Shown here one piece after another: positions 36,828 through 54,368 of a stretch of DNA of 61,870 bases. Made by a program: the position numbers and the translations under genes. Source of the stretch: Thermodesulfovibrionales bacterium (GTDB lineage Bacteria > Nitrospirota > Thermodesulfovibrionia > Thermodesulfovibrionales > SM23-35). The notes under the pieces were generated by a model. The model was not told the DNA's origin, did not search any database, and was given only the letters and a program-made list of their open reading frames with translations. Numbering within the stretch: position 1 is the stretch's first letter; the number at the start of each line of letters is the position of its first letter. The stretch is from positions 1-61,870 of the forward strand of contig JBAZWR010000003.1 in NCBI GenBank assembly GCA_041660325.1. The letters are read 5' to 3'.

Positions 36828-37963
36828 AGCGTTTGCCGTCCTCTCACTACATTTGGAGTTGATTGTTGTTTAACCCAACTCCACGCCCCGCAAGGTTGAA
36901 AAATATCAAGATCTATAGTCTTTACATAATATCTGCCCTCCCCCAGGCAATCCCATAAGTCCTCCGGCATCTTAAAAATATCCCCTTCAAAAAAAGAGCC
37001 CGCAGACGGTATCAAGGAATCTACAGGAGACAATAACAACAGTTTTTTCGAACCGCTTTCAAAAGTGAGAACGGGCGGCGAAGCAAATACGCCTTTATCG
37101 TCATATATTCCGGATGCGTTGCAGCCGATAGACTTATGTAACCTTAGAGCCCGGCGGAGTAAAAAATAACGACCTTTAAAATGTTTTCTCAAATATTTAT
37201 CCGATGAAAAATTATACTTTTCTTTAGAAGCCTCGATATCCTGCTTTGCGCTCTGATTATAATAGTGAATAATATTGGCCTGAGGCGCCATATAAAGGTG
37301 ATATCCTTTCTTTCCAAGCCTCAGACACCAATCGGTATCCTCAAAATAGAGGGGGAAAATCTCATCAAAACCGCCGACAACATCTAAAATCTTTTTTGTC
37401 GTCATTATACATGCGCCGGGAAGCATCTCCTGCCTCAGGGGTTTTTCCGACAGCCAGTACGTCAGGGTCTTCTTTATCCATCTCCTCAGAATTATTTCGT
37501 TCATGGTCTGAGAGACCCTCATAAGCTCCGATTTAAAAATCCTGCAGGGGGTAATGAGTTCGCTGAAGGGAAGCAGAAAAGTCATCTTCTTATTCCACCA
37601 TGTTTTCGGTCCGACCGCGCCGCATTTAGGAAGTGTGAACAGCGCATTTAACATATTCCTTATGCTGCCGGCCTTATAAAATACATCAGGATTTGTTATC
37701 AATACGTAATCACCCCTTGCATTTCTGATCCCTGTATTGACGGCCCTTGCATAGCCTATATTTTCACTGTTCAAGATTATCCCGACATTGTCACTCTTAA
37801 GATTCAGCAGATTATCGACGTCTTCCTCTTTTGAACCGCTATCAATTACAATAATTTCATAGGACTCATCTCCAATGGCAGAGACAATTGAGGACAAACA
37901 TTCTTTCAAAAGGGCCGAGCTGTTATAATTGACGGTTATAATGGACAGCATCACCTTTTCCAT
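36824..37963 (-). CDS. Glycosyltransferase family 2
   Basis: It has LSIITVNYNS...YEIIVIDSGS and a later DxD-like motif (YFEDTDW). Confidence 0.85.
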   Translation of the reverse strand: MEKVMLSIITVNYNSSALLKECLSSIVSAIGDESYEIIVIDSGSKEEDVDNLLNLKSDNVGIILNSENIGYARAVNTGIRNARGDYVLITNPDVFYKAGSIRNMLNALFTLPKCGAVGPKTWWNKKMTFLLPFSELITPCRIFKSELMRVSQTMNEIILRRWIKKTLTYWLSEKPLRQEMLPGACIMTTKKILDVVGGFDEIFPLYFEDTDWCLRLGKKGYHLYMAPQANIIHYYNQSAKQDIEASKEKYNFSSDKYLRKHFKGRYFLLRRALRLHKSIGCNASGIYDDKGVFASPPVLTFESGSKKLLLLSPVDSLIPSAGSFFEGDIFKMPEDLWDCLGEGRYYVKTIDLDIFQPCGAWSWVKQQSTPNVVRGRQTL

Positions 37964-39132
37964 TCATGATGCAGGTAGCATACTCCCCACTCCTTTTCCT
38001 TTGTATCGACTTTAAAAATAATCGATTCCTTTCTGTCATAAATACATATCCCGGTTTCGTCTATCAGAAAGATAACGATCTTATATGCGCCGCCCAAAAT
38101 CGGAAGGTTTTTAAAAGAGAGCGTCAGTCTCTCCCTGCCCGGTCCGTGAAAAGGTGCAAGACCTTGCTTATGCATGCTGTCGGCGTAATAACAAAGGCCG
38201 TCATTCCTGTCTACTGCAAAGCCCACATAGACATCGGTATCTTCGAAGACTTCAAAATCCAGTATGACCTCAATATTAGACAAATACCGTATCGAAGTCT
38301 CTACCGGTTGCCCATCCGCAAAAAGCCTGATATCCTTCACCTCTGCCACTTTTCTCATGACGCTATTACTTAAAGGAGGCATTTCCGTACTTTCAACACG
38401 CTCCTTTTCCCTTAAGTAATCCTCATATATCGAGATGACCTCTTTTGTATCACCGAAGGCCTGCACCCTGCCTTCCTTAAGCCACATGGCCCTGTCACAG
38501 AAATTGGCCACTGTATAAAGAGAGTGAGAACAGTAAAGCAACGTAATCCCGTTTCTCCTTAAATCCCAAATTTTATCAATACACTTCTTTTCATAGGCGC
38601 CGTCACCGACTGCAAGGACTTCGTCTATCAGTACTATCTCTGCATCAACATGAACTGCAAGGGAAAATGCCAGTCTAAGATACATACCGGTTGAGTATGT
38701 TTTCACCGGCATATCAAAAAACTCGCCGATGTCCGTGAATTTCTCTATCATGCCTATTCTCTTATTAATATGCTTCGGTGAAAGGCCCAGCAGTGCAGCA
38801 TTAAGAAGCACATTTTCTCTTCCGGTAAATTCCGGGTTGAATCCTGTGCCGAGTTCAAGTATGGAGGAGACCTTTCCGCTCACTGTAATTCTCCCTTCGG
38901 ATGGCTCTATTACGCCTGCAGCAAGCTTAAGAAATGTACTCTTGCCCGCCCCGTTCTCTCCCAGTATGCCTAAGGCTTCACCTCTGCGCACAGCGATGTC
39001 TATCGGGCCGAGGGCCCTGAAAACCTTGTGTCTTGCTCTCTTAAGAAATAATTCCTTCAGTCTTTCCAAAGGGTGGTCATATATATGATATTCTTTTGTG
39101 AGTCCGGCTGTTTCAACCGCAAAATCTTTCAT
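37951..39132 (-). CDS. wzt: ABC transporter ATP-binding protein, Wzt/TagH-like, with a C-terminal glycan-binding-type domain
   Basis: It has Walker A (GENGAGKST), the signature motif YSTGM, and Walker B (VLIDEV). An extra C-terminal beta-rich domain of about 150 aa follows. Confidence 0.85.
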   Translation of the reverse strand: MKDFAVETAGLTKEYHIYDHPLERLKELFLKRARHKVFRALGPIDIAVRRGEALGILGENGAGKSTFLKLAAGVIEPSEGRITVSGKVSSILELGTGFNPEFTGRENVLLNAALLGLSPKHINKRIGMIEKFTDIGEFFDMPVKTYSTGMYLRLAFSLAVHVDAEIVLIDEVLAVGDGAYEKKCIDKIWDLRRNGITLLYCSHSLYTVANFCDRAMWLKEGRVQAFGDTKEVISIYEDYLREKERVESTEMPPLSNSVMRKVAEVKDIRLFADGQPVETSIRYLSNIEVILDFEVFEDTDVYVGFAVDRNDGLCYYADSMHKQGLAPFHGPGRERLTLSFKNLPILGGAYKIVIFLIDETGICIYDRKESIIFKVDTKEKEWGVCYLHHEWKR

Positions 39133-39926
39133 TATAAAATATCCTTGAACGCCTCTTTTGTCTTATTAAAGACGTAATATCCTGCAACGAAAATTACCAG
39201 CGCAAAAACAGACGGATAGATGAGAGAAAATGCATCGGGCGCCTCGCCCCGCACCAGCACATTTCGATACATCTCAACAATAGAATAGAAAGGATTGAAA
39301 CTGAAAAACCACCGGAACCTCTCCGGAATAGCGCTTGATGGGTAGACAATAGGCGTAACGAAAAATATCAGGTTTAAGATCATGCCGGTTGCCTGAGTTA
39401 TGTCCCTGAAAAAAACCGCGATACTTCCCATACCGAAAGAGAGCCCTAATATCATCAGCACCTGAATTACAAATGGGACTATGAAGAGCGGAAACGTGTG
39501 GAATTTCAGCAGGCCCATAAAGATGAGCATTGCCAGATAGAAGATCATGTATATACAAAAGGTAACAGCTGAAGAAACAATAACTGACGCGACACAGACC
39601 TCCATCGGAAACTTCACTTTCTTAATAATATGGGCATTCTCAATGAACGTTGAAATCCCCCTTGATGTCGCCTCCGCAAAAAAGAGCCAAGGGATAAGTC
39701 CTGCAAGCAGATAGACCACGAAGGAAGATGTTCCGGAATTGTCTTCGAAGCGGACCTTAAGAATCGTCGAAAAGAGGAAAGTATAAAGAAGTATCTGATA
39801 AAGAGGCGTTGCTGCTAACCAGAATGGACCGAGCAGAGAGGCAGCATACTTTGCCTTTATGTCCTTTACGACCATATTTTCAAGGATATATCTGCCCCGG
39901 TAAATATTCACGAACAACTCTTTCAT
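39132..39926 (-). CDS. wzm: ABC-2 type polysaccharide export permease, Wzm-like
   Basis: VVKDIKAKYAASLLGPFWL is the ABC-2 N-terminal motif, and there are six transmembrane segments. I chose the ATG at 39926; the ORF track gives a TTG at 39989. Confidence 0.85.
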   Translation of the reverse strand: MKELFVNIYRGRYILENMVVKDIKAKYAASLLGPFWLAATPLYQILLYTFLFSTILKVRFEDNSGTSSFVVYLLAGLIPWLFFAEATSRGISTFIENAHIIKKVKFPMEVCVASVIVSSAVTFCIYMIFYLAMLIFMGLLKFHTFPLFIVPFVIQVLMILGLSFGMGSIAVFFRDITQATGMILNLIFFVTPIVYPSSAIPERFRWFFSFNPFYSIVEMYRNVLVRGEAPDAFSLIYPSVFALVIFVAGYYVFNKTKEAFKDIL

Positions 39927-40199
39927 AATCTTATTATTATACCTTAAATTAGCAATGTGTTCTTTGTCGATGCTCTGCCGATATTTCAAGCCGCGACAGT
40001 CCTATGTTTCACGTTCACATAGCTTCTCGCGGCATTACCGCCTGTTTTTGCCGACGATAAAATACCGGCTGCCTGCAATTCACGGGCTAATTTGAGCGGA
40101 CCCGTTCCGGACTTGATTACAACTTTGTTCAGTTGCTCGTATTTTGCCAACAGGACGAAAGCATTTTCTTTACCCCGGCAATATGATATTATAGAATAA

Positions 40200-41318
40200 A
40201 TGAGATTTCGTGAGCTGTTGTCTACCGTCGCATCCGCAGTGAAGTTGCATTCATTTGATTCTATTGCCACAACTGAGCGGAATCTCTCAATCTATCGCAG
40301 TTTAAGAAAACAGAATTCAGTCCAATGTCTTAATCTTCCGCTTACTCTCTTGGTCGAGCTGACAAGTAAATGCAATCTCTCCTGCAGGATGTGTAATATC
40401 CACCATGCCGCAAAATCCGGAATGACTATAGATGATGCATTGCTGGAGAGGACGTATGAATTCGCAAAAACTGCATCCACAGTGTATCCGTTCGGTCTTG
40501 GAGAACCATTGCTTCATCCAAATATTGCTGAAATCGTCGGAAAGTATAAATCATCCGGTCCGTCGGTGGGGATGGTCACAAATGGTATGCTTCTCACAAA
40601 AGATATTTCCCGGGCATTGATCTTAAAGGGATTGGACCATCTGGTAATCTCGGTCGATGCAGCTGATGCCTCTCTGTTTGCAGAAATTCGCAAAGGAGGA
40701 GATTTACCAAGAATATTGGATAATATCAGGACAATGAACGGGCTGAAAAAATCCTTCAATGTGCGGAATCCTTTTTTGGCTTTCAATGTAGTTGCTCAGG
40801 CCGGAAATTTTCATCAGCTGCCTCAAATAGTGGAACTGGCTGAGGAATTAAGTATCCTTTCGGTAACAATCACACCGATCACCGTTCACTCGCATATCGC
40901 GGGAATTCAGGACCAGGCCTTGAACGGCAACATACCCCGATGGAGAGAGCTACTGGACACATGTGAGAGAAAGGCTTCCGCGGCTGGAATTAGCATTACC
41001 CTGGACCGTCTGTACCATGTGATGAATGGGGTCTCCCCCGAAGACCTTTATCATAAAACAATCCCATGTCCGGAGCCCTTCCGCTTTATGGGTATCCGAA
41101 CTAACGGAGACGTTTTCCCATGCTGTAACTGGGATGTGGACCGACCTATTGCCGGGCTTTCCCGGACGGAAGATCCCAAAGTTGACCTGAAAAAATCATG
41201 GACAGATCCGAGTTGGCAAATGCTGAGGCAGAATGTCATTTCAGGAAAGTATCCCGATCAATGTAAAGCTTGTATGAGCAATTTCACCAGGCCGTTCAAT
41301 GACGAGTATCTGACATAA
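40200..41318 (+). CDS. Radical SAM protein with a SPASM-type C-terminal Cys cluster
   Basis: It has the CxxxCxxC motif (SKCNLSCRMC). The C-terminal cysteines CPEPF...GDVFPCCNWD...CKAC are SPASM-like. Confidence 0.8.
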   Translation: MRFRELLSTVASAVKLHSFDSIATTERNLSIYRSLRKQNSVQCLNLPLTLLVELTSKCNLSCRMCNIHHAAKSGMTIDDALLERTYEFAKTASTVYPFGLGEPLLHPNIAEIVGKYKSSGPSVGMVTNGMLLTKDISRALILKGLDHLVISVDAADASLFAEIRKGGDLPRILDNIRTMNGLKKSFNVRNPFLAFNVVAQAGNFHQLPQIVELAEELSILSVTITPITVHSHIAGIQDQALNGNIPRWRELLDTCERKASAAGISITLDRLYHVMNGVSPEDLYHKTIPCPEPFRFMGIRTNGDVFPCCNWDVDRPIAGLSRTEDPKVDLKKSWTDPSWQMLRQNVISGKYPDQCKACMSNFTRPFNDEYLT

Positions 41319-41342
41319 AACAAGGACGGCACCATTTGGAGT

Positions 41343-42434
41343 ATGTCAAAAAATTTGAAAATAACATATCTTTTTGAAAGTACCGACTTATGGGGCGGCA
41401 CCAAAGTAGGGCTTGAACAGGCCGAGGCCCTTTCAGATGCGGGGTACAATATTACCATTCTCTCGAAGGATGCCGGGCCGACATGGTATGACCTTAGACT
41501 ACCGGTCATAAAGGTATCCGGATTTGATGTCGATACAATCCCGGAATCCGACATAATAGTAGGCACCTACTGGCCGACAGTCAGGGCTGCCTATGAATCG
41601 CACAGGGGGATAGCGGTTCATCTGTGTCAGGGTTATGAGGGGGGTTGTAAGGAGTACAACTCTTTCAAGGCGGCTATAGACGAAGTATACTCATATAGAA
41701 TTCCCAAGCTTACCATATCGCTCAATCTGGATAAATTCCTTATTGACCGTTTTAATGCGGAAACCTATTATATAGGCCAGATGTTGAATAGAGATATTTT
41801 TTATCCTTCTACTAACTCAGTCTGCAAGAAACTGTTTAAGCCTTTTAAAATACCCGGTTTTGATACTTTCAAGGTACTTGTTGTCGGACCTTTTGAGGCA
41901 GATGTAAAAAACATAGCCGTCTCTCTTAAGGGAATTTCGCTCGCCAAGAAAAGTCTTGGCCATCCTTTAAAACTAATAAGGGTTTCACAATTCCCCCTTT
42001 CCGCCGGGGAAAAGGAGATAATGAAGCCCGATACTTACCACTTTCATGTTCCCCATCAGGATATGGGGAAAATATACAGAAAAGCGGACGTCCTCATTTC
42101 GATGTCGAATGAGGCCGAAGGATTCGGACTGCCGCCACTTGAGGCCATGGCCTCCGGGATACCCACAATACTGAGTAAAATTTCTTCACACCTCGTATAT
42201 GACGACCCTCAGGATTATGCAGTCTTTTCAGAATTCGACCCCGAGGCGCTTTCTGAAGTTATACTCTCGGTATTCAGGAACAGTGAACTCAGAGATAGAA
42301 TCTCGAAGAGAGGACTTCTGGTTGCAGATAAATATACCAGAGAGTCTGTGGTATCAAGACTTGACCGGGCCTTTAACGACATTGTCTCCCGGTCACAACT
42401 TAAAGGCGGCTACGATAAGGTCGGCCGGAGATGA
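41343..42434 (+). CDS. Glycosyltransferase family 4 (GT-B)
   Basis: EGFGLPPLEAMASGIPTILS is the GT4 E-x7-E region. Confidence 0.8.
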   Translation: MSKNLKITYLFESTDLWGGTKVGLEQAEALSDAGYNITILSKDAGPTWYDLRLPVIKVSGFDVDTIPESDIIVGTYWPTVRAAYESHRGIAVHLCQGYEGGCKEYNSFKAAIDEVYSYRIPKLTISLNLDKFLIDRFNAETYYIGQMLNRDIFYPSTNSVCKKLFKPFKIPGFDTFKVLVVGPFEADVKNIAVSLKGISLAKKSLGHPLKLIRVSQFPLSAGEKEIMKPDTYHFHVPHQDMGKIYRKADVLISMSNEAEGFGLPPLEAMASGIPTILSKISSHLVYDDPQDYAVFSEFDPEALSEVILSVFRNSELRDRISKRGLLVADKYTRESVVSRLDRAFNDIVSRSQLKGGYDKVGRR

Positions 42435-44080
42435 AAAAAATTCATCTTCAACCGCTTATCGGAATTATTTTACTTCTCGTTATAGGCTCTGCTTTTGTAT
42501 TTTTATACTCACCGTTGATCGGCAACTGGTTCATGTCCGACGATACCTACCTGATGTGGGCATCCGCCTCACTGAAACTTCACGAAATGTTCTTCAGCCC
42601 TGAAAGACACAGGGTATTGTCAAGTAATTTTAATCCCATGTATGGAGTGTCATTCAAAATTGATTGGTTGCTGTTTAATATGAATCCCGTGGGATATGCC
42701 GTCCACAATATACTTTCCTTGTCGGCTGTTTCAATAGTTTTGTATTTCTTTATCAGGCTCTATACGGCAAGACTTTCAGCGCTTGTCGGGGTCTCACTCT
42801 TTCTGCTCCATCCTGTTACTCTCCACATGACCGGTTTATTTTTCAGAAAACACTATATCGAAGGATTATTTTGGGCATTGCTTGATCTGTATTTTTTTGT
42901 CAGGGCCGATCGCATGGGGAGAGCTTCGGTGTTATCGGCGTTTTTTTACCTCATTGCATCGCTGTACAGAGAAGTGTATGTGGTACTTCCTGCGGTAGCA
43001 TTTTTAATTTCAAAGCAAAGCATGATAGTAAAACGTCTTCGAAATACTTTGCCCCTCTGGGCAGGGCTTCTCATTTATACTGTCTGGAGGTTGTGGATAC
43101 GAGAGGGCATGGGCGGTTATCCGAGTAACCAGTCCCTATTCTCATTCGAAACCCTGCAATTTATTCCAAAAGTCATCGCTTCTCTTTCACTACAGTGGTC
43201 ATCCGCTTACCCGGTTTTGGTATATATACTGATGACCGTACTTATCATATCTTCATTAAAATACCCCCGGTTATTATTCTGTTTTTTAATTTTGTTGATA
43301 CCCATTCTTCCCGTGTCGAATATCATAACCGGTGGTCTCTCTGCTTCAAAATACTTCTTTCATCTTACAGTGTTTCTCATCATTTGCATATCTCTGCTCA
43401 TCGATAAACCCCCTATAAAACAGACCGTGCTTTTCAGATTTATTCTCCTTTCCTTATGCCTCTTTTTCTCAGCGGGCTTTATTGCGCGGGACATTCACAT
43501 GGTCGATGACATGCTGGACGAAAGCCGAAAAGCAAAGAGTACGGCGATGGAGTTTATGTATTCAGGAGCCCCGTATATCAGAGCCCAGCAGCCTTCCTGG
43601 TTCTATGAGGGTCTCAGGAATATCAACAGGGATTTTTTGGGGAAGCATATTCAAACACAGCTGGTCCCGCCTGACGATTTCCTTCCATATGCCGACCCCC
43701 TGAAACTCCGGGAGATAACGAACTCCGGGATAAATATACCGTACCAGGAAATACTCGAAATACGGAAGAAATTCAGAAAAGGTCCTATCAATATAAAACT
43801 GCATGTCGATAATTACAAGCTGTCGTGGGATTTCGGACCTCATAGGGATAAAACGTATACCTTGCTCCGAAGTCTCGTGAGCGGACTCTATTATAATAAA
43901 TCCGACCTGATATCATCCGGGACATATATGTTGGGGAAAGGCGATACGCATGATACTCCGGAGGCAGTCTTTATTAGGGTTCTTTACCATACCGGCACCG
44001 GAGAGATAGTCATTTCTCCCGAGTTCAAACTCATGATCCCAAGCAATAAAACAATTGACTATGTTCAAGCAGCAGAATGA
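42431..44080 (+). CDS. Polytopic membrane protein, GT-C-like with a first-loop DD motif
   Basis: 549 aa, with its start in an ATGA overlap with the upstream GT4 gene. After the first transmembrane segment comes GNWFMSDDTYL, parallel to the FQFDD motif in the TMTC-like protein. It has about 11 transmembrane segments and a C-terminal soluble domain of about 180 aa. Confidence 0.5.
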   Translation: MKKIHLQPLIGIILLLVIGSAFVFLYSPLIGNWFMSDDTYLMWASASLKLHEMFFSPERHRVLSSNFNPMYGVSFKIDWLLFNMNPVGYAVHNILSLSAVSIVLYFFIRLYTARLSALVGVSLFLLHPVTLHMTGLFFRKHYIEGLFWALLDLYFFVRADRMGRASVLSAFFYLIASLYREVYVVLPAVAFLISKQSMIVKRLRNTLPLWAGLLIYTVWRLWIREGMGGYPSNQSLFSFETLQFIPKVIASLSLQWSSAYPVLVYILMTVLIISSLKYPRLLFCFLILLIPILPVSNIITGGLSASKYFFHLTVFLIICISLLIDKPPIKQTVLFRFILLSLCLFFSAGFIARDIHMVDDMLDESRKAKSTAMEFMYSGAPYIRAQQPSWFYEGLRNINRDFLGKHIQTQLVPPDDFLPYADPLKLREITNSGINIPYQEILEIRKKFRKGPINIKLHVDNYKLSWDFGPHRDKTYTLLRSLVSGLYYNKSDLISSGTYMLGKGDTHDTPEAVFIRVLYHTGTGEIVISPEFKLMIPSNKTIDYVQAAE

Positions 44081-44461: not shown

Positions 44462-45484
44462 ATGAATACGAAAATAAGACTTATTATAATTTTGCTCTTT
44501 TGTCTATTTATAGCATTACCCTATGGGAAGGCAGAGGCAGTTCTTGGTATACCCGACAACGTACAGTCTGCCACTTTAATTGTTCCTTTAATGGAGAGGG
44601 GGATTTCCAGCCCCTATAACACCCTGACTGTTGTAGATAGCCTATGCTTAGGTCCTCGTACCATCCACTGGCAGGTATGGGATATGGACGGCAATGCGAC
44701 GCCTCTTAATGGCAACGTCACCCTTCAAGGGTCATGGGTGTCCGATTTCGGGACCATCCTGGGAGGAGCCTCAGGGGCGACACTCACCCAGTTGACTGAT
44801 GGTTCGTTTTATCACGGATTCATGACAATAGACATGGTGACTGCAGCAACAAGTTTGCTTCCCACTAACCCTGCTTATCCGTTCTCCGGGACCAATTGTC
44901 TGACAGGGTGGACCTACTACGTGAGGCTCAGTGAAGGCTCATCCAATGGACTCCCCATGGTCCATATAGAGGGGGGAGTAGGTACAGATGTCCATACAAA
45001 TGCAAGGGGATTTTACCAAGCGGATGATGACAGGGAGGAAATAGATAATCATTCACGCTACTATGCATACCTTACAACAAAGGGGCTGTCTATTGTTGAT
45101 GACCCCAACGATAAAACCGACTATACCATAAGCAGGGTGTATTGCCAGGGAAATGGTGAAACCAGAATCATTGTCTGGGCATGGGCGCCCGCCCAATTCG
45201 GGACTACTTCCAAACCGTCTGATCATGTCGCAGGCGGGCCATTTCAATATTGGCAGTTCGGTGAATCAGGCACTCAGGTTGCGGATAGTACGGTAGCGCT
45301 CAATCACATCGTGAATGTCATCAATGTCCCGGGCGACACAAACGGACAGGTCTGGATAAACAATATACCTGACAACTTTAACGTTTATGTCTTTTCAATC
45401 AACTCTGCTAATAATATTGCAAATCCAGCCTTGACATGGGATGCCTTGTTCGAATCCACTATACTGCCTCAGTGGTTGCCATAA
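44462..45484 (+). CDS. Secreted protein of unknown family (paralog A)
   Basis: The Sec signal is MNTKIRLIIILLFCLFIALPYGKAEA|VLGIPDNV.... It shares its N-terminal mature motif and scattered blocks with the protein encoded at 52717-53844. I recognised no known domain. Confidence 0.6.
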   Translation: MNTKIRLIIILLFCLFIALPYGKAEAVLGIPDNVQSATLIVPLMERGISSPYNTLTVVDSLCLGPRTIHWQVWDMDGNATPLNGNVTLQGSWVSDFGTILGGASGATLTQLTDGSFYHGFMTIDMVTAATSLLPTNPAYPFSGTNCLTGWTYYVRLSEGSSNGLPMVHIEGGVGTDVHTNARGFYQADDDREEIDNHSRYYAYLTTKGLSIVDDPNDKTDYTISRVYCQGNGETRIIVWAWAPAQFGTTSKPSDHVAGGPFQYWQFGESGTQVADSTVALNHIVNVINVPGDTNGQVWINNIPDNFNVYVFSINSANNIANPALTWDALFESTILPQWLP

Positions 45485-45556: not shown

Positions 45557-46747
45557 TTATCCCTCGGCAACAATCACTATCTCGTTCGCCTTCAATTCCT
45601 CTTCCTGTAATTCCGGCAGAAGCTCCTTGAGACGGGCAATAAACTCGCAACCTTTCCGGGGCAGATTGAAACTCTGGAAGTGTAACTCTTTTATCCTGTA
45701 CCCGGCCTCTTCGAAAAGCTCGGCATAGGTGTTCCTTGTGAAGAATCGTATGTGCGTCCCTGAAAGTATGCTGAAAGGGATGTAATCCCATCTCCCCTTC
45801 AGCATTTCGCGGATGATCGCCCAGTTAGTCACGTTTGGAGAACTCGCGATGAAGAGACCTCCGTCCTTCAGATGCCTTCTCAGGAGTTTCACGACCTTCC
45901 AGGGATTATTCAAATGTTCTAATACATCACCGCAGACAATACAATCATACAGACCGAGTCTTCCCTCATCAAGTATAGTTTCGACATCCCCATGTTTAAC
46001 ATAGTCTAACCTGGCTCCGGCAATATCAACCAGTTCACGATCCGATTCAACTCCGGTAACAAAACATTCCTGTCTTTTTTTAAGCATTTCGCCGAAGAGA
46101 CCTCCGGCAGAACCGATATCAAGAACTTCTCGGGCATCGAGAGGTACATATTCCAAAAGGTCATCTCTGCCGCTTTCGTAACAATTACCATAACGGTGGG
46201 CATAAACCCCTTTAGCTACACCAAACCTTAATCCACCATTTTTCACAATCTTTGGCAAATCAATTAAAGAACCGTCTTCCGGTAAAACATTCAATAGTTC
46301 ACTTCTTAAGGCAAGACAGAAATTATCTATTTCATCAGCCTCTATTATATTATCTTTATATTCATCATAGATATCCTTCACTGCCCATTTTAATACTGAT
46401 ATTGTTTGATAGATATAAGGGGGTGCATGCCTCTGATATAGTATCTTACTTTCATTGGTCACAGGTACGATGACTGAGAATTTCTTTTGGTTCAAAGCTA
46501 TCCTCGATAGGACATTGATGCCCTCGTATGTGATAAATAAAATGCCGTAGATAAAGACAAACACATCGTAACCTTTATAATTAAAAAGGTCTCTGACCAT
46601 TAAAGAGCTGTCTCCATCAATCTCAAATAAATCTAAGGTCTTATCATTGCTCTCCAATAGCAGATGTCTGCTGACCCTCTGTGCGGTCTCCCCTTCCATA
46701 CCTTTGAAGCTATTCTCTTTGATAATAAAAACGGCTATTTTACTCAT
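45557..46747 (-). CDS. Two-domain protein: unknown (GT-A-like?) N-terminal domain plus a class I SAM methyltransferase
   Basis: The C-terminal half has VLDIGSAGGLFG and YDCIVCGDVLEHL. The N-terminal approximately 190 aa contain FSVIVPVTNES. I chose the ATG at 46747, which overlaps the yfhO stop by 8 nt. Confidence 0.7.
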   Translation of the reverse strand: MSKIAVFIIKENSFKGMEGETAQRVSRHLLLESNDKTLDLFEIDGDSSLMVRDLFNYKGYDVFVFIYGILFITYEGINVLSRIALNQKKFSVIVPVTNESKILYQRHAPPYIYQTISVLKWAVKDIYDEYKDNIIEADEIDNFCLALRSELLNVLPEDGSLIDLPKIVKNGGLRFGVAKGVYAHRYGNCYESGRDDLLEYVPLDAREVLDIGSAGGLFGEMLKKRQECFVTGVESDRELVDIAGARLDYVKHGDVETILDEGRLGLYDCIVCGDVLEHLNNPWKVVKLLRRHLKDGGLFIASSPNVTNWAIIREMLKGRWDYIPFSILSGTHIRFFTRNTYAELFEEAGYRIKELHFQSFNLPRKGCEFIARLKELLPELQEEELKANEIVIVAEG

Positions 46748-49502
46748 TATTGAAGTGTTTTCTTCTCCCTTTAAAAAACAGATACGACATCCATACAATG
46801 AAGGTTGTTACTGAAATAATAATACCCGAATAAAAGCTTATGGGTCTATAATAAAAAAGGACTTCACTCCTTCCGCTTTCGACCATTACACCCCTTAAAA
46901 GCCCAAATGCCTTTATCATCCTTTCCTCCTTCCCGTTAACCCTCACCTTCCAGCCGGGGTAATAGAGGTCACTTAAAACAAGGAGCCCGCCCTTTGATTC
47001 TACTTCAATAGCTACCTCATCAGAAGCATATTTTTTAATCATAACCTTCTCATATGAAAATCCCCCCTCGTCCCCCTTTATTAAAGGGGGGATAAAATTT
47101 ACGAGTCCGACTTTCCTGAAATTAATGCCTCCCTGCAACTCATTTATTATACTATTAAGATCATCGTTAATCCTTATCTGATGTAATACAAAGGCCCTCT
47201 CCATAACATTTCTGTTTTCGTATATATGGATACCTTCGTATGCCCCTTTGTACCCCAGAAAATCAAGTTCCCTTTTGTGAAGTCTCAATAGCTTTGCATG
47301 AAGGGACATCTCTTTTTCATATCCCGGGGAAAGACCGAAATTTCCTAACACGATACTTCCGTCACCGCTACCAGCCCCTTCTATGATAAAAGTAACTTCC
47401 TTGCCCATATAATTCGAGACATCCAGCCATTGGTCATTCCAAACACCATCATGTACAATCAATTCCGCAGCTCTGTTTTCTACCATTATTTTTACTTTAG
47501 CTGTTGTGCCCTTTGGGACATCTTTCATTGAAAAACCTGCAAAGATAAAAGGCTCCGATACCCTGAGTTTTGTTTCGAATACGAACTTCATCGGAAAAAA
47601 GAAGGAGAATCTCTCATCAACACCCGGATTAAAAACACCATAGTGTGCCCCTCCTTTAATGGAATGCCTGACCATGGCGTCAAATAAACGCACCCATCTC
47701 ACGGAAGCAATATGAGATTTTATGGCATCCTCAAGCCTTCGGGGGTCCAACAGATCATGGCTCATAATGTATTTAACACCCAAAAGGTCAATAAACGGCG
47801 ACGTTGCGGTAAAGAGTGGGTTCGGATTATTGGTCTGCGGCACACTAAAACCGAGAAGGTTTTCAGAGAAAGTATAATAATCACCGGGCAGCAAAACACT
47901 GACAGCCCTTATGTCATGCAAACCGATGGCATTACCGGTCAGAGGAGGGGCGCAGTTTCCGCTCCCGGTAATCCTGTAATGCCCCGGCCCTTTCATGACG
48001 GCTGTATAAGGCGGCTCCTGATAGGGATTGTACCTGTCCGGATGGTCTTTCGGCATATACAGGTAGAGTTCCACGATGAGCATGAGGAAAACAAGTCCTC
48101 CAAATACATGCTTCTTTTTTGAGAGACGGAAGGTAACAGCGACAAGCGCCGTTCCTGAAAGTGTGAGGAACAGGACAGCAGTCATATGGTTTTTGACCCC
48201 GGAAGGGCTCCGGCCATAGAGGAAGAAGAAATATAAGGCGACGAGAGAAGAGACAAAAAATACGGAAAGATAAAACTTCTTCCTGTTCCCCCTGCCTGAT
48301 AAAAGGTCATCAAAAGCAGAGGCGGACATTACCGCCAATGAGAAATAGAACATTGCATTGTATTTCAGGAATTCAATGCTTCCGATAACAGGCAGTCTCG
48401 AAATAACATGCGGCGGTAAAACGCCGTATATCATAGAAAACATAAATAATGAGAAGATGATAAAAGGAAAGGTTTTCTTTAACGTGTTGAGGTTAAGCAC
48501 AGCATAGAAAGATAAAATCAATATTACTATCGCCGTGTGGGGCAAAATAATATGGGGCTCCCAATGGAGCCATGACCCATAGAAATAATTTTCCCATCCG
48601 AGGAATAGCGGCTGAAACAGTGATACAGATGTAATCAAAGGGATCGTATGACCGGCAGCCCCTGTCCTTATGGCTTTTGCAAGCGGAGAGGCATGCAAGT
48701 AGAGTTCAATGAAGGGTATAAGCACTACTGCTGCCATTAGTGCACCGGAGACCGTACCGATAATTACCTTCCATCCCTCTCTATGAAGACCCTTGATGGA
48801 ATCTTTCATATAACCCTTCCAGAGCGCATAGGGGAAGAGGAGAGAAAGACACATGATCACATCGGGTGTCTTTCCGGCAATCAGTGCAAATGAGAGAAGA
48901 AGCGACATGAAGAATGCGTTTTTGAGATTTTTTCCATTGCTCCATCTCTCGTAAAAATAGAAAACAGCCGGCAGGTACATTACTGTGCTTAACGGATGCA
49001 GATTTACCCACCAGACGGAATATCCCGATAACATGAAAAAAGAAGCGCCGAAGAGGGATGAAGCATGAGAGAGGTGCAGTTCCCTCAAAAAGAGAAAAGC
49101 GAAGGAACCCATCACAAGAAGCCTCAGGAGAAAAAACATGTCCTGCGAAAAGGGGTGAGGAAAAAGGTTCAGAAAAATCTTCAGAGGGTTAAAAACTTCT
49201 GTATTTAAATTGCCGATAAGCGGGATTCCCAGACCTTCAAGAGGGTTCCACACAGGCAATGTATTCTCATTCAGTATCCCTCTTATTATGTAGGGATTAG
49301 GCTCGTTCACATACGCATTTCCGCCGATATCGAAGGAAAACGGCATCTCGGGCCTGTATCCTGAAAAGCCGTAAGGGCCGTTGGGGGTTGCCCCAGGGAG
49401 CAGGGAAGACGTAGAAAGGGTCTTCCCCGAAAAAAGCACGTCATTGAAAAAAAAGATGAGCAAGATAAGTAAAAGAAAAAGCCCTAATTTATTCTTGCCC
49501 AT
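46740..49502 (-). CDS. YfhO-family GT-C-like membrane protein
   Basis: 920 aa with many transmembrane segments. The C-terminal block LLVLSDLYYPGWKVRVNGKE is typical of YfhO. Confidence 0.8.
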   Translation of the reverse strand: MGKNKLGLFLLLILLIFFFNDVLFSGKTLSTSSLLPGATPNGPYGFSGYRPEMPFSFDIGGNAYVNEPNPYIIRGILNENTLPVWNPLEGLGIPLIGNLNTEVFNPLKIFLNLFPHPFSQDMFFLLRLLVMGSFAFLFLRELHLSHASSLFGASFFMLSGYSVWWVNLHPLSTVMYLPAVFYFYERWSNGKNLKNAFFMSLLLSFALIAGKTPDVIMCLSLLFPYALWKGYMKDSIKGLHREGWKVIIGTVSGALMAAVVLIPFIELYLHASPLAKAIRTGAAGHTIPLITSVSLFQPLFLGWENYFYGSWLHWEPHIILPHTAIVILILSFYAVLNLNTLKKTFPFIIFSLFMFSMIYGVLPPHVISRLPVIGSIEFLKYNAMFYFSLAVMSASAFDDLLSGRGNRKKFYLSVFFVSSLVALYFFFLYGRSPSGVKNHMTAVLFLTLSGTALVAVTFRLSKKKHVFGGLVFLMLIVELYLYMPKDHPDRYNPYQEPPYTAVMKGPGHYRITGSGNCAPPLTGNAIGLHDIRAVSVLLPGDYYTFSENLLGFSVPQTNNPNPLFTATSPFIDLLGVKYIMSHDLLDPRRLEDAIKSHIASVRWVRLFDAMVRHSIKGGAHYGVFNPGVDERFSFFFPMKFVFETKLRVSEPFIFAGFSMKDVPKGTTAKVKIMVENRAAELIVHDGVWNDQWLDVSNYMGKEVTFIIEGAGSGDGSIVLGNFGLSPGYEKEMSLHAKLLRLHKRELDFLGYKGAYEGIHIYENRNVMERAFVLHQIRINDDLNSIINELQGGINFRKVGLVNFIPPLIKGDEGGFSYEKVMIKKYASDEVAIEVESKGGLLVLSDLYYPGWKVRVNGKEERMIKAFGLLRGVMVESGRSEVLFYYRPISFYSGIIISVTTFIVWMSYLFFKGRRKHFNNE
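47072..47090. repeat. Perfect 9-bp-arm palindrome inserted in frame in yfhO
   Basis: CCCCCTTTA t TAAAGGGGG. On the coding (minus) strand it encodes PPLIKGDEGGF. Confidence 0.5.
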
Positions 49503-49554: not shown

Positions 49555-50673
49555 TTACATTACTTCGAAGTCACGATACTTGATGTTATTATCTTCATTA
49601 GTCTCTCCAACCTGACCATCGGCGTCCGCAACTGCGATAATATGATAGTATGTGTGGAGTATCAAACCGCTGAAGGTCATATCGCTAAAAGTGAGAGTCG
49701 TTGATGCTCCTGCGGCAAGCCCTGATACGGTTTTCGTGCCGTTCACCAGGAGTTGGCTGCCTTCCGCCGTATAGCCGTGGGACATATAGATCTTTACTGT
49801 GAATGGACCCGCAGCACCTGTGCCAAGGTTTGTTACAGTCACCGTAGCTGGAACGCCTAAGCCATTAGAACCGGCTGATGTCGCTCTAAAATAGCTTACA
49901 GTAAGGTCCGCCGCACTGCCGGTTTGAATGTTCGCAGAACAACTCGCTGTCGAGCCACCGTATGAGCCGTTGCAGGTCCAGGACCACGGTCCGCTGCCGC
50001 TTACCGATGACGCAGTGCCCGCGCTGCAAAGATTGGTGGTTGGCACTGATGTAAACGTCTGCAAGTTCGATGAGCCGCACACTCCGTCGACCTTCTTCTG
50101 TGCAGAGCAGCTTGCGTTCTGGCCCCCGTTCTCACCATAGCAGGTCCAGCTCCAAGGCCCTTGCCCGCTAACTGCAGACGCCGAGCCTGATGAGCAGAGA
50201 TCTATAGGCACCTGTGTCAAGCCCTGGCTGTACGTGACGCACACGCCATTGACAGAAGAGTTAGAATTTATTTCGTATGTCATAACATGCAAATTAGGCG
50301 CTACAACTGTGCCGTCTGTACAGAATACATATATTGTGTTCGTAAGTTTGTCAAAGGACATGGTGATATCATTGTTCACGAGGTCATTGTTATGAATAAG
50401 AAAAGGGTTTACTGCAACATTAGGGGTCGCAGTCCCTAAAACGCCCGTCACAGCAAAATCTGCCACAGGAAGAATAGCGCCAGTGTCATCCCTCACTTCA
50501 AGATACGCCGAATAACTCGGTGTTTCAGCTGGGCCACACCCGCCGGTACACTCGATAAAGCCCCTGACAAGAACATTATTGCCAAAAACACTTGTCTGTT
50601 GAGCCGATGCCACGGCAACAAATGCCATTAAGGCAATGACAAACACACTAACTAATAACGATAGTCTTTTCAT
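49555..50673 (-). CDS. Secreted protein with two Cys-rich GPWSWTC repeats and a C-terminal CARDB-like domain
   Basis: The signal peptide ends ...VAVASAQQ. The repeats are CSSGSASAVSGQGPWSWTCYGENGGQNASCSA and CSAGTASSVSGSGPWSWTCNGSYGGSTASCSA. The C-terminus, DLTVS...VTVTNLGTGAAGPF...ETNEDNN, is CARDB-like. Confidence 0.7.
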   Translation of the reverse strand: MKRLSLLVSVFVIALMAFVAVASAQQTSVFGNNVLVRGFIECTGGCGPAETPSYSAYLEVRDDTGAILPVADFAVTGVLGTATPNVAVNPFLIHNNDLVNNDITMSFDKLTNTIYVFCTDGTVVAPNLHVMTYEINSNSSVNGVCVTYSQGLTQVPIDLCSSGSASAVSGQGPWSWTCYGENGGQNASCSAQKKVDGVCGSSNLQTFTSVPTTNLCSAGTASSVSGSGPWSWTCNGSYGGSTASCSANIQTGSAADLTVSYFRATSAGSNGLGVPATVTVTNLGTGAAGPFTVKIYMSHGYTAEGSQLLVNGTKTVSGLAAGASTTLTFSDMTFSGLILHTYYHIIAVADADGQVGETNEDNNIKYRDFEVM

Positions 50674-50938: not shown

Positions 50939-51334
50939 TCATTCCAATCTGAACCTGTGCCGCCATTTTCCGTCCTTAAAGATCCACTCATCAATAAAGA
51001 CATCCTTAACGGGCTTGGGGATCGGAGGCTTTATTACGCTGATTCTCACAGCCACGGTCCCTTTTTCCCCTTCAACCTCTGTTTTATCTATGTAAAAAGA
51101 CTCAATCTTAAATTTCTTTATCAGCTTGGCCGTTTCCTGGTACTGTGCGAGCGGGGGCAAGTCTGATTTCTCTTCCATTTTGTATGTCTCTTCATATTTT
51201 TCCAGCAATCGCAGTTTCCAGTATTCCTCAGCCTTTGATTTTAGTGATTCTTTCAGGTCTACTTCCTTTGGCATTGTCGCACAGCTATGAAGCAGAAACA
51301 ATATTATTGGGAATAAAAGAGCAGCTTTCTTCAT
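50939..51334 (-). CDS. Small lipoprotein, unknown function
   Basis: The signal carries a lipobox (FLLHSC). Confidence 0.6.
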   Translation of the reverse strand: MKKAALLFPIILFLLHSCATMPKEVDLKESLKSKAEEYWKLRLLEKYEETYKMEEKSDLPPLAQYQETAKLIKKFKIESFYIDKTEVEGEKGTVAVRISVIKPPIPKPVKDVFIDEWIFKDGKWRHRFRLE

Positions 51335-51370: not shown

Positions 51371-52588
51371 TTATTTCACTTTCAGTGTGTACGCCCTTAA
51401 TCCATGATGGAATGAGGGATTCTCGTCTCCGAGGTTATACACAATCAGGAACGAACCATCTTTGTTCTTTCCTACTCTTAAGTCTCTGGACCCTTTCGCT
51501 TCATCAGGAGAAAGGGGGTACTGTCCGATCTCAGTCCATCCATCATGATGATACCGGAACAGGTGAATACCGTCTTCTGAAAGCACAACCAACTCCTTTG
51601 TGCCAATCCCGTCGATGTCCGCGAGATCAAATGCGATGGGCCTCACTTTCTCGAGACCGGCGGAGAGATCCCGGAATCCATCTCCGTTCCATTTCAGCAC
51701 AGAGAACTCGATAAACGCACCTCTGCCGAGTGTCGAACGCATGAAAACGACTTCATCTTTTCCATCTCCGTCCAGATCACCCACCCGTGCAATCATGGGC
51801 ATGGTATTTACCGCTATATCCGTCTGATAGCTCTTGAAATCACCTTTTCCATCTCCGAACCAGATGCTCTTTTTCCCTTCCTTCACTGCCAGCGTGGCGA
51901 CGGCAATGTCTTTTTTCCCGGCTCCGGCGATATCACCTACTGCAAAGGAGTCTCCAAACCAGCCGCGGCTGTCCTCAATCATGCGGATATCCCAGTCTTT
52001 ACCACCTTTGTTGATGCCAATCAGGAGACCCTGAGGCTTGTAAGCGGTCCCATATGATGACTCTGACAGGGCCACAATATCGGGCCATCCGTCGCCATTG
52101 ATGTCTGCAATCTCTACCGCGCGCGATTGGAAGGTTTTTTCCGGAACAGTGAAAGCCATCTCAGCAAAACCTCCGCTCTTATTGTTCTGCAAAATCATTA
52201 TTTTCCCTGAATGTACTGCAAGGACAATATCCGGATAACCATCTGCATTGATATCCCCTGCTGCAACTCCTCCATAGCCATAGCTCGCTTTCGGGAAAGT
52301 GTACTTTCCCTCTCTCCAAATTCCATCCTTACCCTGAAGAAATATAAACGGCCTGTTCTGATCAGCCTCTGCTTTCCGCGGAGGAGGAGCAACAATATCA
52401 AGGTACCCGTCTCCATCCATATCGACGAGCGCTGTGTTCTCCCTCCAGAGGCCTTCAGTAGGAAGCCCCTTCGATATGTCGGAAACGTTATACGCGCCTG
52501 TACTCTCCCGGCCAACAGGCAACGCCGCACAACCCAAATACGATAATACAGACAAGGCCATTATTATATTTACAACAAATCTTTTCAA
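51371..52588 (-). CDS. FG-GAP/VCBS repeat beta-propeller protein (lipoprotein-type signal)
   Basis: The repeated motifs are DMDGDGYLDIV, GDINADGYPDIVL, ADINGDGWPDIVAL, GDIAGAGKKDIAV, GDLDGDGKDEVVF and ADIDGIGTKELVV. The signal ends LSYLGC. Confidence 0.8.
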   Translation of the reverse strand: MKRFVVNIIMALSVLSYLGCAALPVGRESTGAYNVSDISKGLPTEGLWRENTALVDMDGDGYLDIVAPPPRKAEADQNRPFIFLQGKDGIWREGKYTFPKASYGYGGVAAGDINADGYPDIVLAVHSGKIMILQNNKSGGFAEMAFTVPEKTFQSRAVEIADINGDGWPDIVALSESSYGTAYKPQGLLIGINKGGKDWDIRMIEDSRGWFGDSFAVGDIAGAGKKDIAVATLAVKEGKKSIWFGDGKGDFKSYQTDIAVNTMPMIARVGDLDGDGKDEVVFMRSTLGRGAFIEFSVLKWNGDGFRDLSAGLEKVRPIAFDLADIDGIGTKELVVLSEDGIHLFRYHHDGWTEIGQYPLSPDEAKGSRDLRVGKNKDGSFLIVYNLGDENPSFHHGLRAYTLKVK

Positions 52589-52614: not shown

Positions 52615-52652
52615 AATGCAAAAAAAGAGGGGGATAGATCTTTTCTATCCCC
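52615..52652 (-). terminator. Intrinsic terminator downstream of paralog B
   Basis: On the minus strand the stem is GGGGGATAG-aaaagat-CTATCCCCC, followed by TCTTTTTTTGC. Confidence 0.7.
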
Positions 52653-52716
52653 CCTTCAGATCTTTAACAAAAACTGTGAATCCCGATTCCGGGAAAAAAG
52701 TTTTTAATGCACTGAA

Positions 52717-53844
52717 CTACAGATCCAATCCGCAAGCAGGACCCGTAATATACGTAAGAGTTTCCGGAACGCTGCAGTAATCTCTGTGCATCGGATGAAT
52801 AACATCCCAGCTCAGCTCACTTGTGTCCGCAGCTTCCCTCTGGTAAGCCCATCCGAAGATCGAGTAGTACTGACCCGTAGTTAAGGTACAGACAGTGACG
52901 TCCGTAGTACCGGTTATTATATGGGAAACCCCGCCAATATCACCGGATTCAACTATGCCCAGTTGAGCAAAGCCGCCCTTGGGGAAACCTGTGTGAATGA
53001 CCGGAAGGTGTTGTCCCACATCGATTATGTTGAGTTCTCTCGGAATGCCAATCTCGAAATCCGGGCAGACCTCTTGTTCATTACAAATTATACCGGTGAG
53101 CTTCCTTGAGAACAGAGCGCCCGAACAATTTACATATTCAACATCACATGTTACCTTGCCGATCTGATTTCTTCCTGCCATAATTATCCACCAGTTCCAT
53201 GTCTGTGCCTTATCATTCAGTAAAAAGTATCTTGGCATAAAATCATGGGCTGTGATAGGGGCAGCACCAGCGTCTTCTTCCATACGTGCGCCGGCACCAT
53301 CTTCGAGCCCGATGCCGTTAAGGCCGCTGACAAATCCTAAATTTAAGTCCTCAAGATAGGCCCATGAAACAAGGTCGTTACCGCTAGTTTCTGTATTGGT
53401 GAAGATTACATAACCGGCGTACCAATCTTGCCCTTCCACGGAAATTCTCATCTGGTCCTTCTGAGTGGGGCTCATGCTATCGATGATGTCCTTGCAGTTT
53501 AAGGACTCCACATCATGGCAGGTAAGCGGCTTGTTGAAAGTAAGAACTTCTTTGCTGCAGGAGTTTCTTACCGAAGCATGCGCTACTATCACCGCATTGC
53601 CGTCAGGGGTTGTTATAATAGGTTCGACTAATGTTGAACACTCTTTGTCACTATCAAAACCGGCGTGAGCAAGAGCGAAGGCGGTATTCAGGCCATGGGA
53701 TGCATCCACACCGCACATAATTGGGATTACGACAGCATTTGCGGGCACATCGTCAGCTACACCAAGGACGGCATGGGCAGTGCCTATGCCACAGAGTAAC
53801 ATAGAAAGCATTGCTACGATTGTTAATAAACTTCTTATTTTCAC
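52717..53844 (-). CDS. Secreted protein of unknown family (paralog B)
   Basis: It has a GTG start preceded by AAGGAGGAGG. The signal is MKIRSLLTIVAMLSMLLCGIGTAHA|VLGVADDV.... It shares blocks with the protein encoded at 44462-45484. Confidence 0.6.
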   Translation of the reverse strand: MKIRSLLTIVAMLSMLLCGIGTAHAVLGVADDVPANAVVIPIMCGVDASHGLNTAFALAHAGFDSDKECSTLVEPIITTPDGNAVIVAHASVRNSCSKEVLTFNKPLTCHDVESLNCKDIIDSMSPTQKDQMRISVEGQDWYAGYVIFTNTETSGNDLVSWAYLEDLNLGFVSGLNGIGLEDGAGARMEEDAGAAPITAHDFMPRYFLLNDKAQTWNWWIIMAGRNQIGKVTCDVEYVNCSGALFSRKLTGIICNEQEVCPDFEIGIPRELNIIDVGQHLPVIHTGFPKGGFAQLGIVESGDIGGVSHIITGTTDVTVCTLTTGQYYSIFGWAYQREAADTSELSWDVIHPMHRDYCSVPETLTYITGPACGLDL

Positions 53845-54064: not shown

Positions 54065-54093
54065 ATTTTAAATAAAGGTCTTGCCTTTGTCAA
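54065..54093 (-). promoter_or_regulatory. Sigma-70-like promoter (TTGACA-17-TAAAAT) for paralog B
   Basis: Read on the minus strand, TTGACA is at 54093-54088 and TAAAAT at 54070-54065. This implies a 5' leader of about 210 nt. Confidence 0.4.
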
Positions 54094-54368
54094 GCTTTTT
54101 TTTAATAACATTCCCCTTAATCATTCTATAGTTAGTGAGTATAACCATATTATTCCGCGCCTGTCAAGTACTATGATAGAAAAGCTCAGTGCATTTCTAT
54201 GCAAAAAACAGACCAGATTCAATCCCGTGTAAATGCCTGTATTTCGGGATACAGGGAGTCCCTGTTTGTGTGTTTTCTGCATCATTTCTGTGTATTTTGT
54301 GCCATATTGATACACGTTGCTATTTAAAAATAAAATGCCTCCGGAATCCTTATCATATCCTGTCCTAT

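Follow-up and report, generated by a model that had tools for sequence, protein, structure and literature searches.

A large unnamed superfamily of Sec-exported, all-beta proteins and its conserved secretin and glycan gene module in Nitrospirota

What are two secreted proteins that begin almost identically once their signal peptides are removed, that belong to no named family, and whose genes lie among those for a secretin and a surface glycan? The question is raised by the first 61,870 nucleotides (forward strand) of contig JBAZWR010000003.1 from a Thermodesulfovibrionales bacterium of the phylum Nitrospirota (assembly GCA_041660325.1), hereafter the window, which encode protein A of 340 amino acids (aa) and protein B of 375 aa. 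An initial annotation, made from the sequence alone, recognized no domain in either and proposed that they are polymerizing surface-fiber subunits or cargo of the adjacent secretion and glycosylation machinery. We found that A and B are divergent paralogs of one large superfamily of Sec-exported, all-beta proteins of about 35 kDa, which is real and so far unnamed and whose hallmark is the mature N-terminus. In Nitrospirota, its members sit in a conserved module with GspD, lipoproteins, a CARDB protein, YfhO and glycan genes. As to function, we tentatively favor the reading that A and B are surface proteins exported by a type II secretion system (T2SS), lectin- or adhesin-like, which bind or organize the glycan of the locus. 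The two genes and their N-terminal features are as follows.

44462 to 45484, plus strand: paralog A, an A-type superfamily member of 340 aa (open reading frame, ribosome-binding site, 86 homolog clusters, AlphaFold2 [AF2] model with a mean predicted local distance difference test [pLDDT] of 91.8)
44462 to 44539, plus strand: signal peptide of A, 26 aa, ending in A-E-A (from the sequence and family statistics)
44540 to 44596, plus strand: conserved mature N-terminal motif of A, VLGIPDNVQSATLIVPLME (D32 and P42 invariant; A26 and G29 near-invariant)
52717 to 53844, minus strand: paralog B, a Cys-rich B-type member of 375 aa (open reading frame, 39 homolog clusters, AF2 pLDDT 91.9)
53713 to 53844, minus strand: signal peptide of B, 25 aa, ending in A-H-A, and conserved mature N-terminal motif VLGVADDVPANAVVIPIMC (from the sequence)

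The sequence confirms two open reading frames whose Sec signals end in A-x-A and whose mature N-termini are nearly identical. Protein A reads MNTKIRLIIILLFCLFIALPYGKAEA up to the predicted cleavage site and VLGIPDNVQSATLIVPLM after it; B, which starts at a GTG codon, reads (M)KIRSLLTIVAMLSMLLCGIGTAHA and then VLGVADDVPANAVVIPIM. We take 44462 as the right start of A because a GAGGG Shine-Dalgarno sequence lies 6-10 nt 5' of this ATG, none stands in front of the alternative ATG at 44435, and the homologs share the start position of ATG 44462. On inspection, both signal peptides are of the classical n-h-c type with small residues at -3 and -1 and without a lipobox Cys, and both proteins fit Sec export with cleavage by signal peptidase I. 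Neither carries a prepilin leader (G followed by F(M)-x-x-x-E) and hydrophobic helix; instead, an A-x-A site is followed by V-x-G and then a beta-strand. C-terminal sorting signals of the PEP-CTERM, LPXTG or type IX secretion system C-terminal domain kind were found in neither A (...TILPQWLP) nor B (...GPACGLDL), and the two C-termini have no hydrophobic tail and match no Pfam or NCBIfam domain. The described composition holds as well: mature A contains 9.6% G, 9.9% T, 7.6% N and 10.8% W+Y+F, and mature B contains 12 Cys, of which C44/C117 and C254/C260 are conserved among B-types. Both mature proteins are acidic, with an isoelectric point (pI) of ~4.4, and both are rich in Thr, Ser and Asn.

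Beyond the N-terminus, the initial claim of paralogy drew on four weak collinear blocks. Pairwise BLASTP of A against B recovers only the N-terminus (E 8e-5) and one of these, LTGW in A and LVSW in B (E 0.014). Comparison of the A-family and B-family alignments with hhalign gives a probability of 99.1% (E 9.2e-19) over 281 columns, that is, full-length homology, with all four blocks mutually aligned and most of the signal in the N-terminal half (98.5%, E 4e-15). Moreover, the family hidden Markov models (HMMs) cross-detect, the A HMM finding the B family and the B HMM the A family. From the profile-profile match and this reciprocal detection, we conclude that A and B are genuine, ancient paralogs.

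How far does the family extend? Homologs form 86 clusters for A and 39 for B, all unnamed, and Pfam assigns them a single domain, the CARDB of P0067, a fragment from the A family. With a merged profile, HMMER was run exhaustively and returned 1,157 representatives at E<=1e-3, of which 545 also pass E<=1e-10; each stands for a cluster at 50% identity, and nearly all are 300-450 aa long and align from residue 1. The taxa in the records are Nitrospirota (including Thermodesulfovibrionia), Acidobacteriota (Thermoanaerobaculia, Holophagales and others), Desulfobacterota (including isolate NaphS2) and Methylomirabilota. Consistent with the initial failure to recognize a domain, A has zero Pfam or NCBIfam matches at E<=1, while B has none in NCBIfam at E<=1 and a single, sub-threshold one in Pfam, to IglE_N (E 0.24; 12.3 bits vs a cut-off of 26). 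A Pfam and NCBIfam scan of 48 A-family and 53 divergent members gave scattered chance matches only, and searches of PDB sequences with single sequences and four different profiles retrieved no relative of A or B. Likewise, nothing describing the family or module was found in the literature searched, Pfam, NCBIfam or PDB, nor any relevant T2SS-glycan system of Nitrospirota; a Sphingomonas exopolysaccharide paper returned by the literature search proved unrelated.

Within this diversity, a third subgroup (alignment A4, P0236-P0262, columns ~215-250) carries a DxDxDG(V/I)xD insertion, similar to an EF-hand/dockerin calcium loop, just ahead of a conserved Y-x-G-Y strand, and one subgroup member weakly matches Dockerin_1. 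Tandem pairs of A-type genes occur in some loci outside the module. Other A-type genes are split over several frames (L046, 9851-11038; L045, 9974-10922; L040, 10800-12150), being either pseudogenes or the result of homopolymer errors in long-read metagenome-assembled genomes (MAGs). Tandem arrays of up to four copies, at one point proposed, were withdrawn, as L046 and L045 each hold one frameshifted gene and only the pairs are real.

The expectation of a beta-rich fold was borne out by AF2 monomer models built on the family alignments (pLDDT 91.8 for A and 91.9 for B; predicted template modeling score 0.88 for both). Each model is all-beta and divides into two eight-stranded beta-sandwich halves, and neither has a segment with pLDDT below 50. 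A dyad arising by internal duplication of one domain is unsupported in the sequence, hhalign giving a probability of 0.2% between the N- and C-terminal halves. Foldseek searches against PDB (both models) and BFVD (A) found no whole-chain match, template modeling (TM) scores being 0.24 or less, and neither profile nor structure comparison placed the proteins in a well-characterized family. The top-ranked whole-chain matches were adhesins and pilins (ClfB/SdrC N2-N3, PitB, CupB6) and lectins (Pleurotus POL, SGBP-B), which have a secreted two-sandwich architecture like A and B, but at TM-scores of 0.09-0.21, root mean square deviations (rmsd) of 18-28 Å and probabilities mostly <0.55 the resemblance is generic, and the sortase, LPXTG or usher context of the adhesins and pilins is not seen at A or B. 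We dismissed the arrestin, lectin, vicilin, PNGase F, adhesin, pilin and phage tail matches alike as generic beta-sandwich similarity with poor scores.

Only one Foldseek match was consistent for both models, a partial one to TM1070 of Thermotoga (PDB 1nc7) with a probability of 1.00, a TM-score normalized to the 117-aa target of 0.58 for A and ~0.68 for B (range 0.58-0.69) and an rmsd of 4-6 Å. TM1070 is an orthologue of ASRT, a member of the ASRAH superfamily (Pfam DUF1362/ASRT) of eight-stranded sandwiches predicted to bind sugars, whose extracellular versions are dyads or tetrads linked to glycosyltransferase genes (PMC2739507). Each half of A and B is likewise modeled with eight strands, and two halves encoded in a glycan locus recall the extracellular dyads beside glycosyltransferase genes. 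In contrast, A and B share no sequence relationship with TM1070: PF07100/ASRT matched none of the 101 scanned members, for the A set even at E<=10, and profile searches of PDB did not retrieve 1nc7. The ASRAH signature residues, a Trp at the start of strand 1 and an Asn at the end of strand 2, are not evident in A or B, whose halves are not detectable repeats of each other and which are three times larger, with an invariant N-terminal motif of their own. The likeness to TM1070 is a lead at the level of the fold only, with no sequence signature held in common. The other weak matches were to lectins, adhesins, pilins and domains like carbohydrate-binding modules rather than to catalytic domains.

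What sets the family apart is its mature N-terminus. The motif, A-x-A followed after cleavage by (V/L/I)-x-G-x-x-D-x-V-P...P, is retained in members only 15-20% identical to A, and its conservation in homologs, which the initial annotation had named as a test that could refute it, is therefore clear. We collected 268 members and counted 210 that bear the motif, with G at +3 and D at +6 fixed by construction, as they served to define it; the frequencies at the other positions are given below.

Position -3: A or S, 82%
Position -1: A or G, 99%
Position +1: V, L or I, 95%
Position +8: V, 92%
Position +9: P, 84%
Position +16: P, 98%

Family signal peptides are 23-25 aa long, and the motif always abuts the cleavage site, never with any linker, which is unusual. 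Residues D32, P42, G119, G159, E170, R225 and E270 are also kept at 15-20% identity to A, and D32, Y152, E170, E193, R225, E270 and W326 are invariant or nearly so across the superfamily. B-types add a conserved W-D-x-x-H-x-x-H-R block near the C-terminus, which is lost in A.

Does this N-terminus serve as a tag? In both AF2 monomers, residues 31-40 have a pLDDT of 94-95, and the first strand of A, preceded by a coil, spans residues 38-47; the motif is therefore modeled as a packed cap and first strand of the N-terminal sandwich, and by these models it belongs integrally to that sandwich rather than being a detachable tag. The initial annotation had seen in it a donor strand or sorting motif, so that A and B would polymerize as a surface fiber by exchange of the N-terminal strand, or the motif would be a linear sorting signal for the secretion machinery. 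Such roles would fit its extreme conservation, its constant place at the cleavage site and its beta-strand, and A/B paralog pairs resemble major and minor fiber subunits. The weak Foldseek matches to PitB, CupB6 and ClfB point the same way, and the N22 segment of curli CsgA is a precedent for a secretion signal at a mature N-terminus. However, the motif lies confidently within the monomer fold, and the pilin and adhesin matches have TM-scores of 0.21 or less and low probabilities. No chaperone/usher (PapD/PapC-type Pfam domains) or sortase genes occur among the scanned window neighbors, and no PapD/PapC-type chaperone/usher genes in the homologous loci. Moreover, the CARDB protein, the one further secreted cluster product looked at, does not have the motif, which argues against a general sorting tag. 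Since the structural argument comes from monomer predictions, which in AF2 tend to self-complement, donor-strand exchange is weakened rather than refuted; the analysis yielded no positive evidence for it or for a sorting signal, and we consider both very improbable. Hardly more credible to us is a wider proposal in which the motif is a functional handle, either a linear recognition element for a dedicated T2SS/GspD or a strand swapped between A- and B-type subunits, and the module would build a T2SS-exported, glycan-decorated surface polymer or sheath anchored by the FG-GAP and small lipoproteins.

Do the neighboring genes point to a function instead? Those that bear on the question are listed below.

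54369 to 56285, minus strand: GspD-type secretin, adjoining B on its upstream side (Pfam domains Secretin, Secretin_N and N0)
51371 to 52588, minus strand: FG-GAP repeat protein, encoded by the first gene downstream of B and lipobox-like at its N-terminus (Pfam FG-GAP_3)
50939 to 51334, minus strand: small lipoprotein-like protein of 131 aa, third gene of the triad begun by B and FG-GAP (LLHSC in the sequence; conserved position)
49555 to 50673, minus strand: secreted CARDB-domain protein (Pfam CARDB; conserved position)
46740 to 49502, minus strand: YfhO-family membrane protein, a probable GT-C glycosyltransferase (Pfam YfhO)
45557 to 46798, minus strand: methyltransferase convergent with A (Pfam Methyltransf_23; conserved neighbor)
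37951 to 44080, both strands: glycan genes upstream of A, namely Wzt and Wzm (minus) and a radical SAM-SPASM (rSAM-SPASM) enzyme, a family 1 glycosyltransferase (GT1) and a 549-aa multi-pass membrane protein (plus) (Pfam)
15355 to 22963, plus strand: T2SS-type operon with GspE, GspF, pseudopilin-like open reading frames, a PilM/N fusion and a GspM/PilO-like open reading frame (Pfam; pseudopilin N-termini)

The surface-glycan locus of the window thus runs in the order GNAT, methyltransferases, GT9, GT2, Wzt (with Wzt_C), Wzm, rSAM-SPASM, GT1, 549-aa membrane protein and A, and continues after A with the methyltransferase, YfhO, the CARDB protein, the 131-aa lipoprotein-like protein, the FG-GAP lipoprotein-like protein, B, the secretin, GT4, GT2 and a second YfhO. 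The secretin passes the NCBIfam GspD equivalog cut-off (355.3 vs 351.35 bits), and the 131-aa protein has no Pfam match. The T2SS-type operon has four pseudopilin-like open reading frames, with true pseudopilin-type N-termini in those at 18077-20875. It contains no secretin gene, and the GspD beside B, 31 kb away, is the sole secretin of the window. Unlike in the window, the equivalents of this operon are contiguous with GspD in L051, where a member ~18% identical to A belongs to a single array: PilM/N-GspM-open reading frame-GspD-Wzm-Wzt-GT2-PIG-L/GT2-member-FG-GAP-small protein.

In homologous loci much of this arrangement recurs. The genes of four A homologs (65, 58, 56 and 41% identity) belong to the gene cluster known from the window, and B homologs at 44, 39 and 34% identity show the order secretin-(PIG-L)-B-FG-GAP-small protein-CARDB-(YfhO)-methyltransferase. 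A and B occur together in the window, L002, L004, L008, L048 and L049, close to each other in the last two. The synteny sample for B-types comprises 35 metagenome loci plus others. FG-GAP directly follows the B-type gene in ~30 of the ~35 loci whose sequence reaches far enough downstream, usually with the small lipoprotein gene next, and GspD lies upstream of B-type genes wherever the sequence suffices, in at least 10 loci besides the window. In Nitrospirota, CARDB, YfhO and methyltransferase genes usually come after the triad, and the Wzt, Wzm, rSAM-SPASM, GT1 and membrane-protein genes recur in homologous clusters.

The almost invariant order of GspD, B, FG-GAP and small lipoprotein could also mean that the last three form a periplasmic or outer-membrane accessory complex of GspD or of glycan export, acting in pilotin function, assembly or gating, and that B is not cargo. 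Both partners of B have lipobox-like signals, the genes follow gspM and gspD in L051, and T2SS and type IV pilus secretins commonly need small lipoprotein pilotins. However, A-type relatives are widespread without a nearby secretin, the family shows a diversity and tandem duplication more often met with in cargo or surface proteins than in machinery, B seems to have a promoter and terminator to itself, and there is no similarity to known pilotins, GspC, GspA or GspB. We therefore regard such a complex as rather unlikely.

The YfhO-family genes conserved in the module suggest another role, in which A and B are passive, S-layer-like glycoproteins, substrates that the locus's own YfhO-family GT-C enzymes would O-glycosylate. 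Their Thr-, Ser- and Asn-rich composition would suit this, and a precedent exists in streptococci, where the YfhO-family protein PgfM1 is reported to take part in surface adhesin glycosylation (PMC5856776, PMC12041528). The module resembles the streptococcal Pgf/YfhO systems and YfhO-dependent lipoteichoic acid glycosylation in that it keeps a YfhO-family GT-C gene alongside secreted surface-type proteins. But those systems are Gram-positive, and their targets are teichoic acids or, for Pgf (PMC12041528), Ser/Thr-rich disordered regions. The module belongs to a diderm host with Wzm/Wzt and a secretin in the locus, and A and B are compact, with no disordered region. Moreover, YfhO, kept in L003, L008, L047, L059, L067 and L068, is absent from clusters L002, L004 and L048, and a conserved sequon was not identified in A/B. 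A substrate role is thus improbable.

Our favored reading, in which A and B are abundant surface cargo of the T2SS, would run as follows. The proteins would fold in the periplasm, where B would also form disulfides, and would be exported through a dedicated T2SS/GspD. At the cell surface they would act nonenzymatically and, jointly with the FG-GAP and CARDB proteins, bind or organize the glycan that the locus produces. The module, in the order GspD, B, FG-GAP lipoprotein, small lipoprotein, CARDB, YfhO, methyltransferase and A, lies within an ABC-transporter-dependent (Wzm/Wzt) glycan locus and is linked to a T2SS, whose secretin gene would have moved next to B. We base this reading on the adjacency of gspD and the T2SS, the conserved disulfide Cys, the acidic pI, the calcium-loop-like insertion of one subgroup, the structural likeness to sugar-binding and adhesin sandwiches rather than catalytic domains, and the following promoter- and terminator-like signals of B.

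54065 to 54167, minus strand: two sigma-70-like promoter matches, 11 of 12 each, in the 525-bp gap 5' of B (consensus matches only)
52628 to 52654, minus strand: terminator-like hairpin (11-bp stem) with a T-run, between B and the FG-GAP gene

Genes of abundant structural proteins often have such signals, and B likewise has strong promoter-like sites and a hairpin resembling a terminator to itself. The arrangement also suggests, at the level of sequence, that B may be transcribed more strongly than the genes downstream.

T2SS cargo genes often adjoin their gsp genes and a small lipoprotein pilotin, as in pulA/pulS and sslE/aspS. Klebsiella pulA (with pulS and pulC-O) and Escherichia coli sslE (with aspS/yghG and gspC-M beta) are like A and B in that the products are Sec-dependent and the genes lie beside gspD or other gsp genes and a small lipoprotein gene. 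In contrast, PulA and SslE, both lipoproteins, are enzymes whose folds are known, whereas A and B are non-lipidated and only putatively T2SS-dependent. The cargo role proposed in the initial annotation is thus kept as the best available reading, at the strength of a proposal.

Several points weigh against it. We infer secretion through the T2SS, surface location and sugar binding of A and B indirectly, and the partners of B, being lipoproteins, would fit a periplasmic complex too. The link to ASRT is one of fold level only, with modest similarity and no common sequence signature. Genetic linkage to T2SS/GspD genes, found for Nitrospirota B-types and the A-types linked to them, does not extend to A-types of other phyla. 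Among 38 A-type loci (Acidobacteriota, Desulfobacterota, Methylomirabilota and the Nitrospirae MAG L014), 33 have no match to the cluster proteins of the window, four have one isolated match, and NaphS2 alone has a partial cluster. The association with GspD, YfhO and glycan genes expected by the initial annotation is thus tight in Nitrospirota but not a property of the whole family, and the function of A is not strictly dependent on the module. No other recurring neighbors of A-type genes were found outside the module; apparent neighbor families of non-Nitrospirota A-types turned out to be antisense open reading frames in high-GC DNA or synteny of one clade (M48 peptidase, TonB receptor).

Finally, the invariant polar residues D32, E170, E193, R225 and E270, with the H/H/R of B-types, might just as well indicate a site for catalysis or for a metal. 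A and B might then be glycan-active enzymes (hydrolase, lyase or transglycosylase-like) that trim or remodel the polymer of the Wzm/Wzt-YfhO locus in the periplasm or outside, with active B-types and diverged A-types. The whole near-invariant set, with Y152 and W326, looks like a functional site, the W-D-x-x-H-x-x-H-R block is lost in A, and the genes lie within glycan loci. Many families of glycoside hydrolases (GH) and polysaccharide lyases (PL) have beta-sandwich folds, and PslG, PelA, AlgL and BcsZ have such a trimming or remodeling role in other exopolysaccharide loci. However, Foldseek matched no GH or PL catalytic domain, the GH2 matches being to non-catalytic sandwich domains at TM <0.2, and there is no profile match to CAZy-related Pfam families. 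An enzymatic role is therefore credible but on balance unlikely.

Further observations concern the other genes of the locus. The B/FG-GAP/~130-140-aa lipoprotein-like triad is present in nearly every locus of L047-L086, which suggests a physical complex, and the small lipoprotein could be a pilotin-like factor. Ahead of its CARDB domain, the CARDB protein has two copies of a ~35-aa Cys-framed repeat, C-S-x-G-x-A-S-x-V-S-G-x-G-P-W-S-W-T-C-x-G-x-x-G-G-x-x-A-S-C-S-A, that no Pfam model covers. One Nitrospirota MAG carries a nucleotidyltransferase/HEPN pair, toxin-antitoxin-like, between the secretin/PIG-L genes and the B-type gene (L047, 3247-3983). In the window, Wzt has a Wzt_C domain (37951-39132, minus strand), and the 413-aa methyltransferase beside A (45557-46798) joins a ~200-aa unannotated N-terminal region to its methyltransferase domain; both recall O9a-type O-antigen systems, in which a chain-terminating methylation is read by the transporter.

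The rSAM-SPASM enzyme (40200-41318, plus strand) is conserved in the glycan cluster beside a GT1(-methyltransferase) gene, and its best NCBIfam matches, a tungsten-cofactor oxidoreductase maturase and a Geobacter metalloenzyme maturase, are far under their cut-offs. Modification of A or B by this enzyme (e.g., thioether crosslinks) was considered and set aside: conservation is lacking at the Cys residues of A, and no model of a peptide maturase matches the enzyme above its threshold. The membrane domains of the multi-pass proteins at 28787-31384 (plus), 32403-34787 (minus) and 42431-44080 (plus) have no Pfam or NCBIfam match even at E<=1, which leaves the initial TMTC-like label, like a GT-C identity, unconfirmed; one of the three large membrane proteins (549-aa, 794-aa, TPR) has a C-terminal tetratricopeptide repeat (TPR) array.

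Beta-sandwich proteins exported to the surface are familiar, and so is T2SS cargo whose genes adjoin gsp genes, whereas this family and its module are undescribed in the sources searched. The family, with at least 1,157 clusters at 50% identity in four phyla, is unnamed and has neither a Pfam or NCBIfam model nor a relative of solved structure. If its N-terminal motif were a targeting or assembly element, it would inform the old problem of T2SS cargo recognition, and as a linear recognition element it would give type II secretion its first linear signal. If the proteins are merely lectin-like surface components, they are still of use as a new domain family and to mark the module. Moreover, the module points to an undescribed way of building or decorating the cell surface in mostly uncultured diderm lineages, in which type II secretion is genetically coupled to glycan synthesis.

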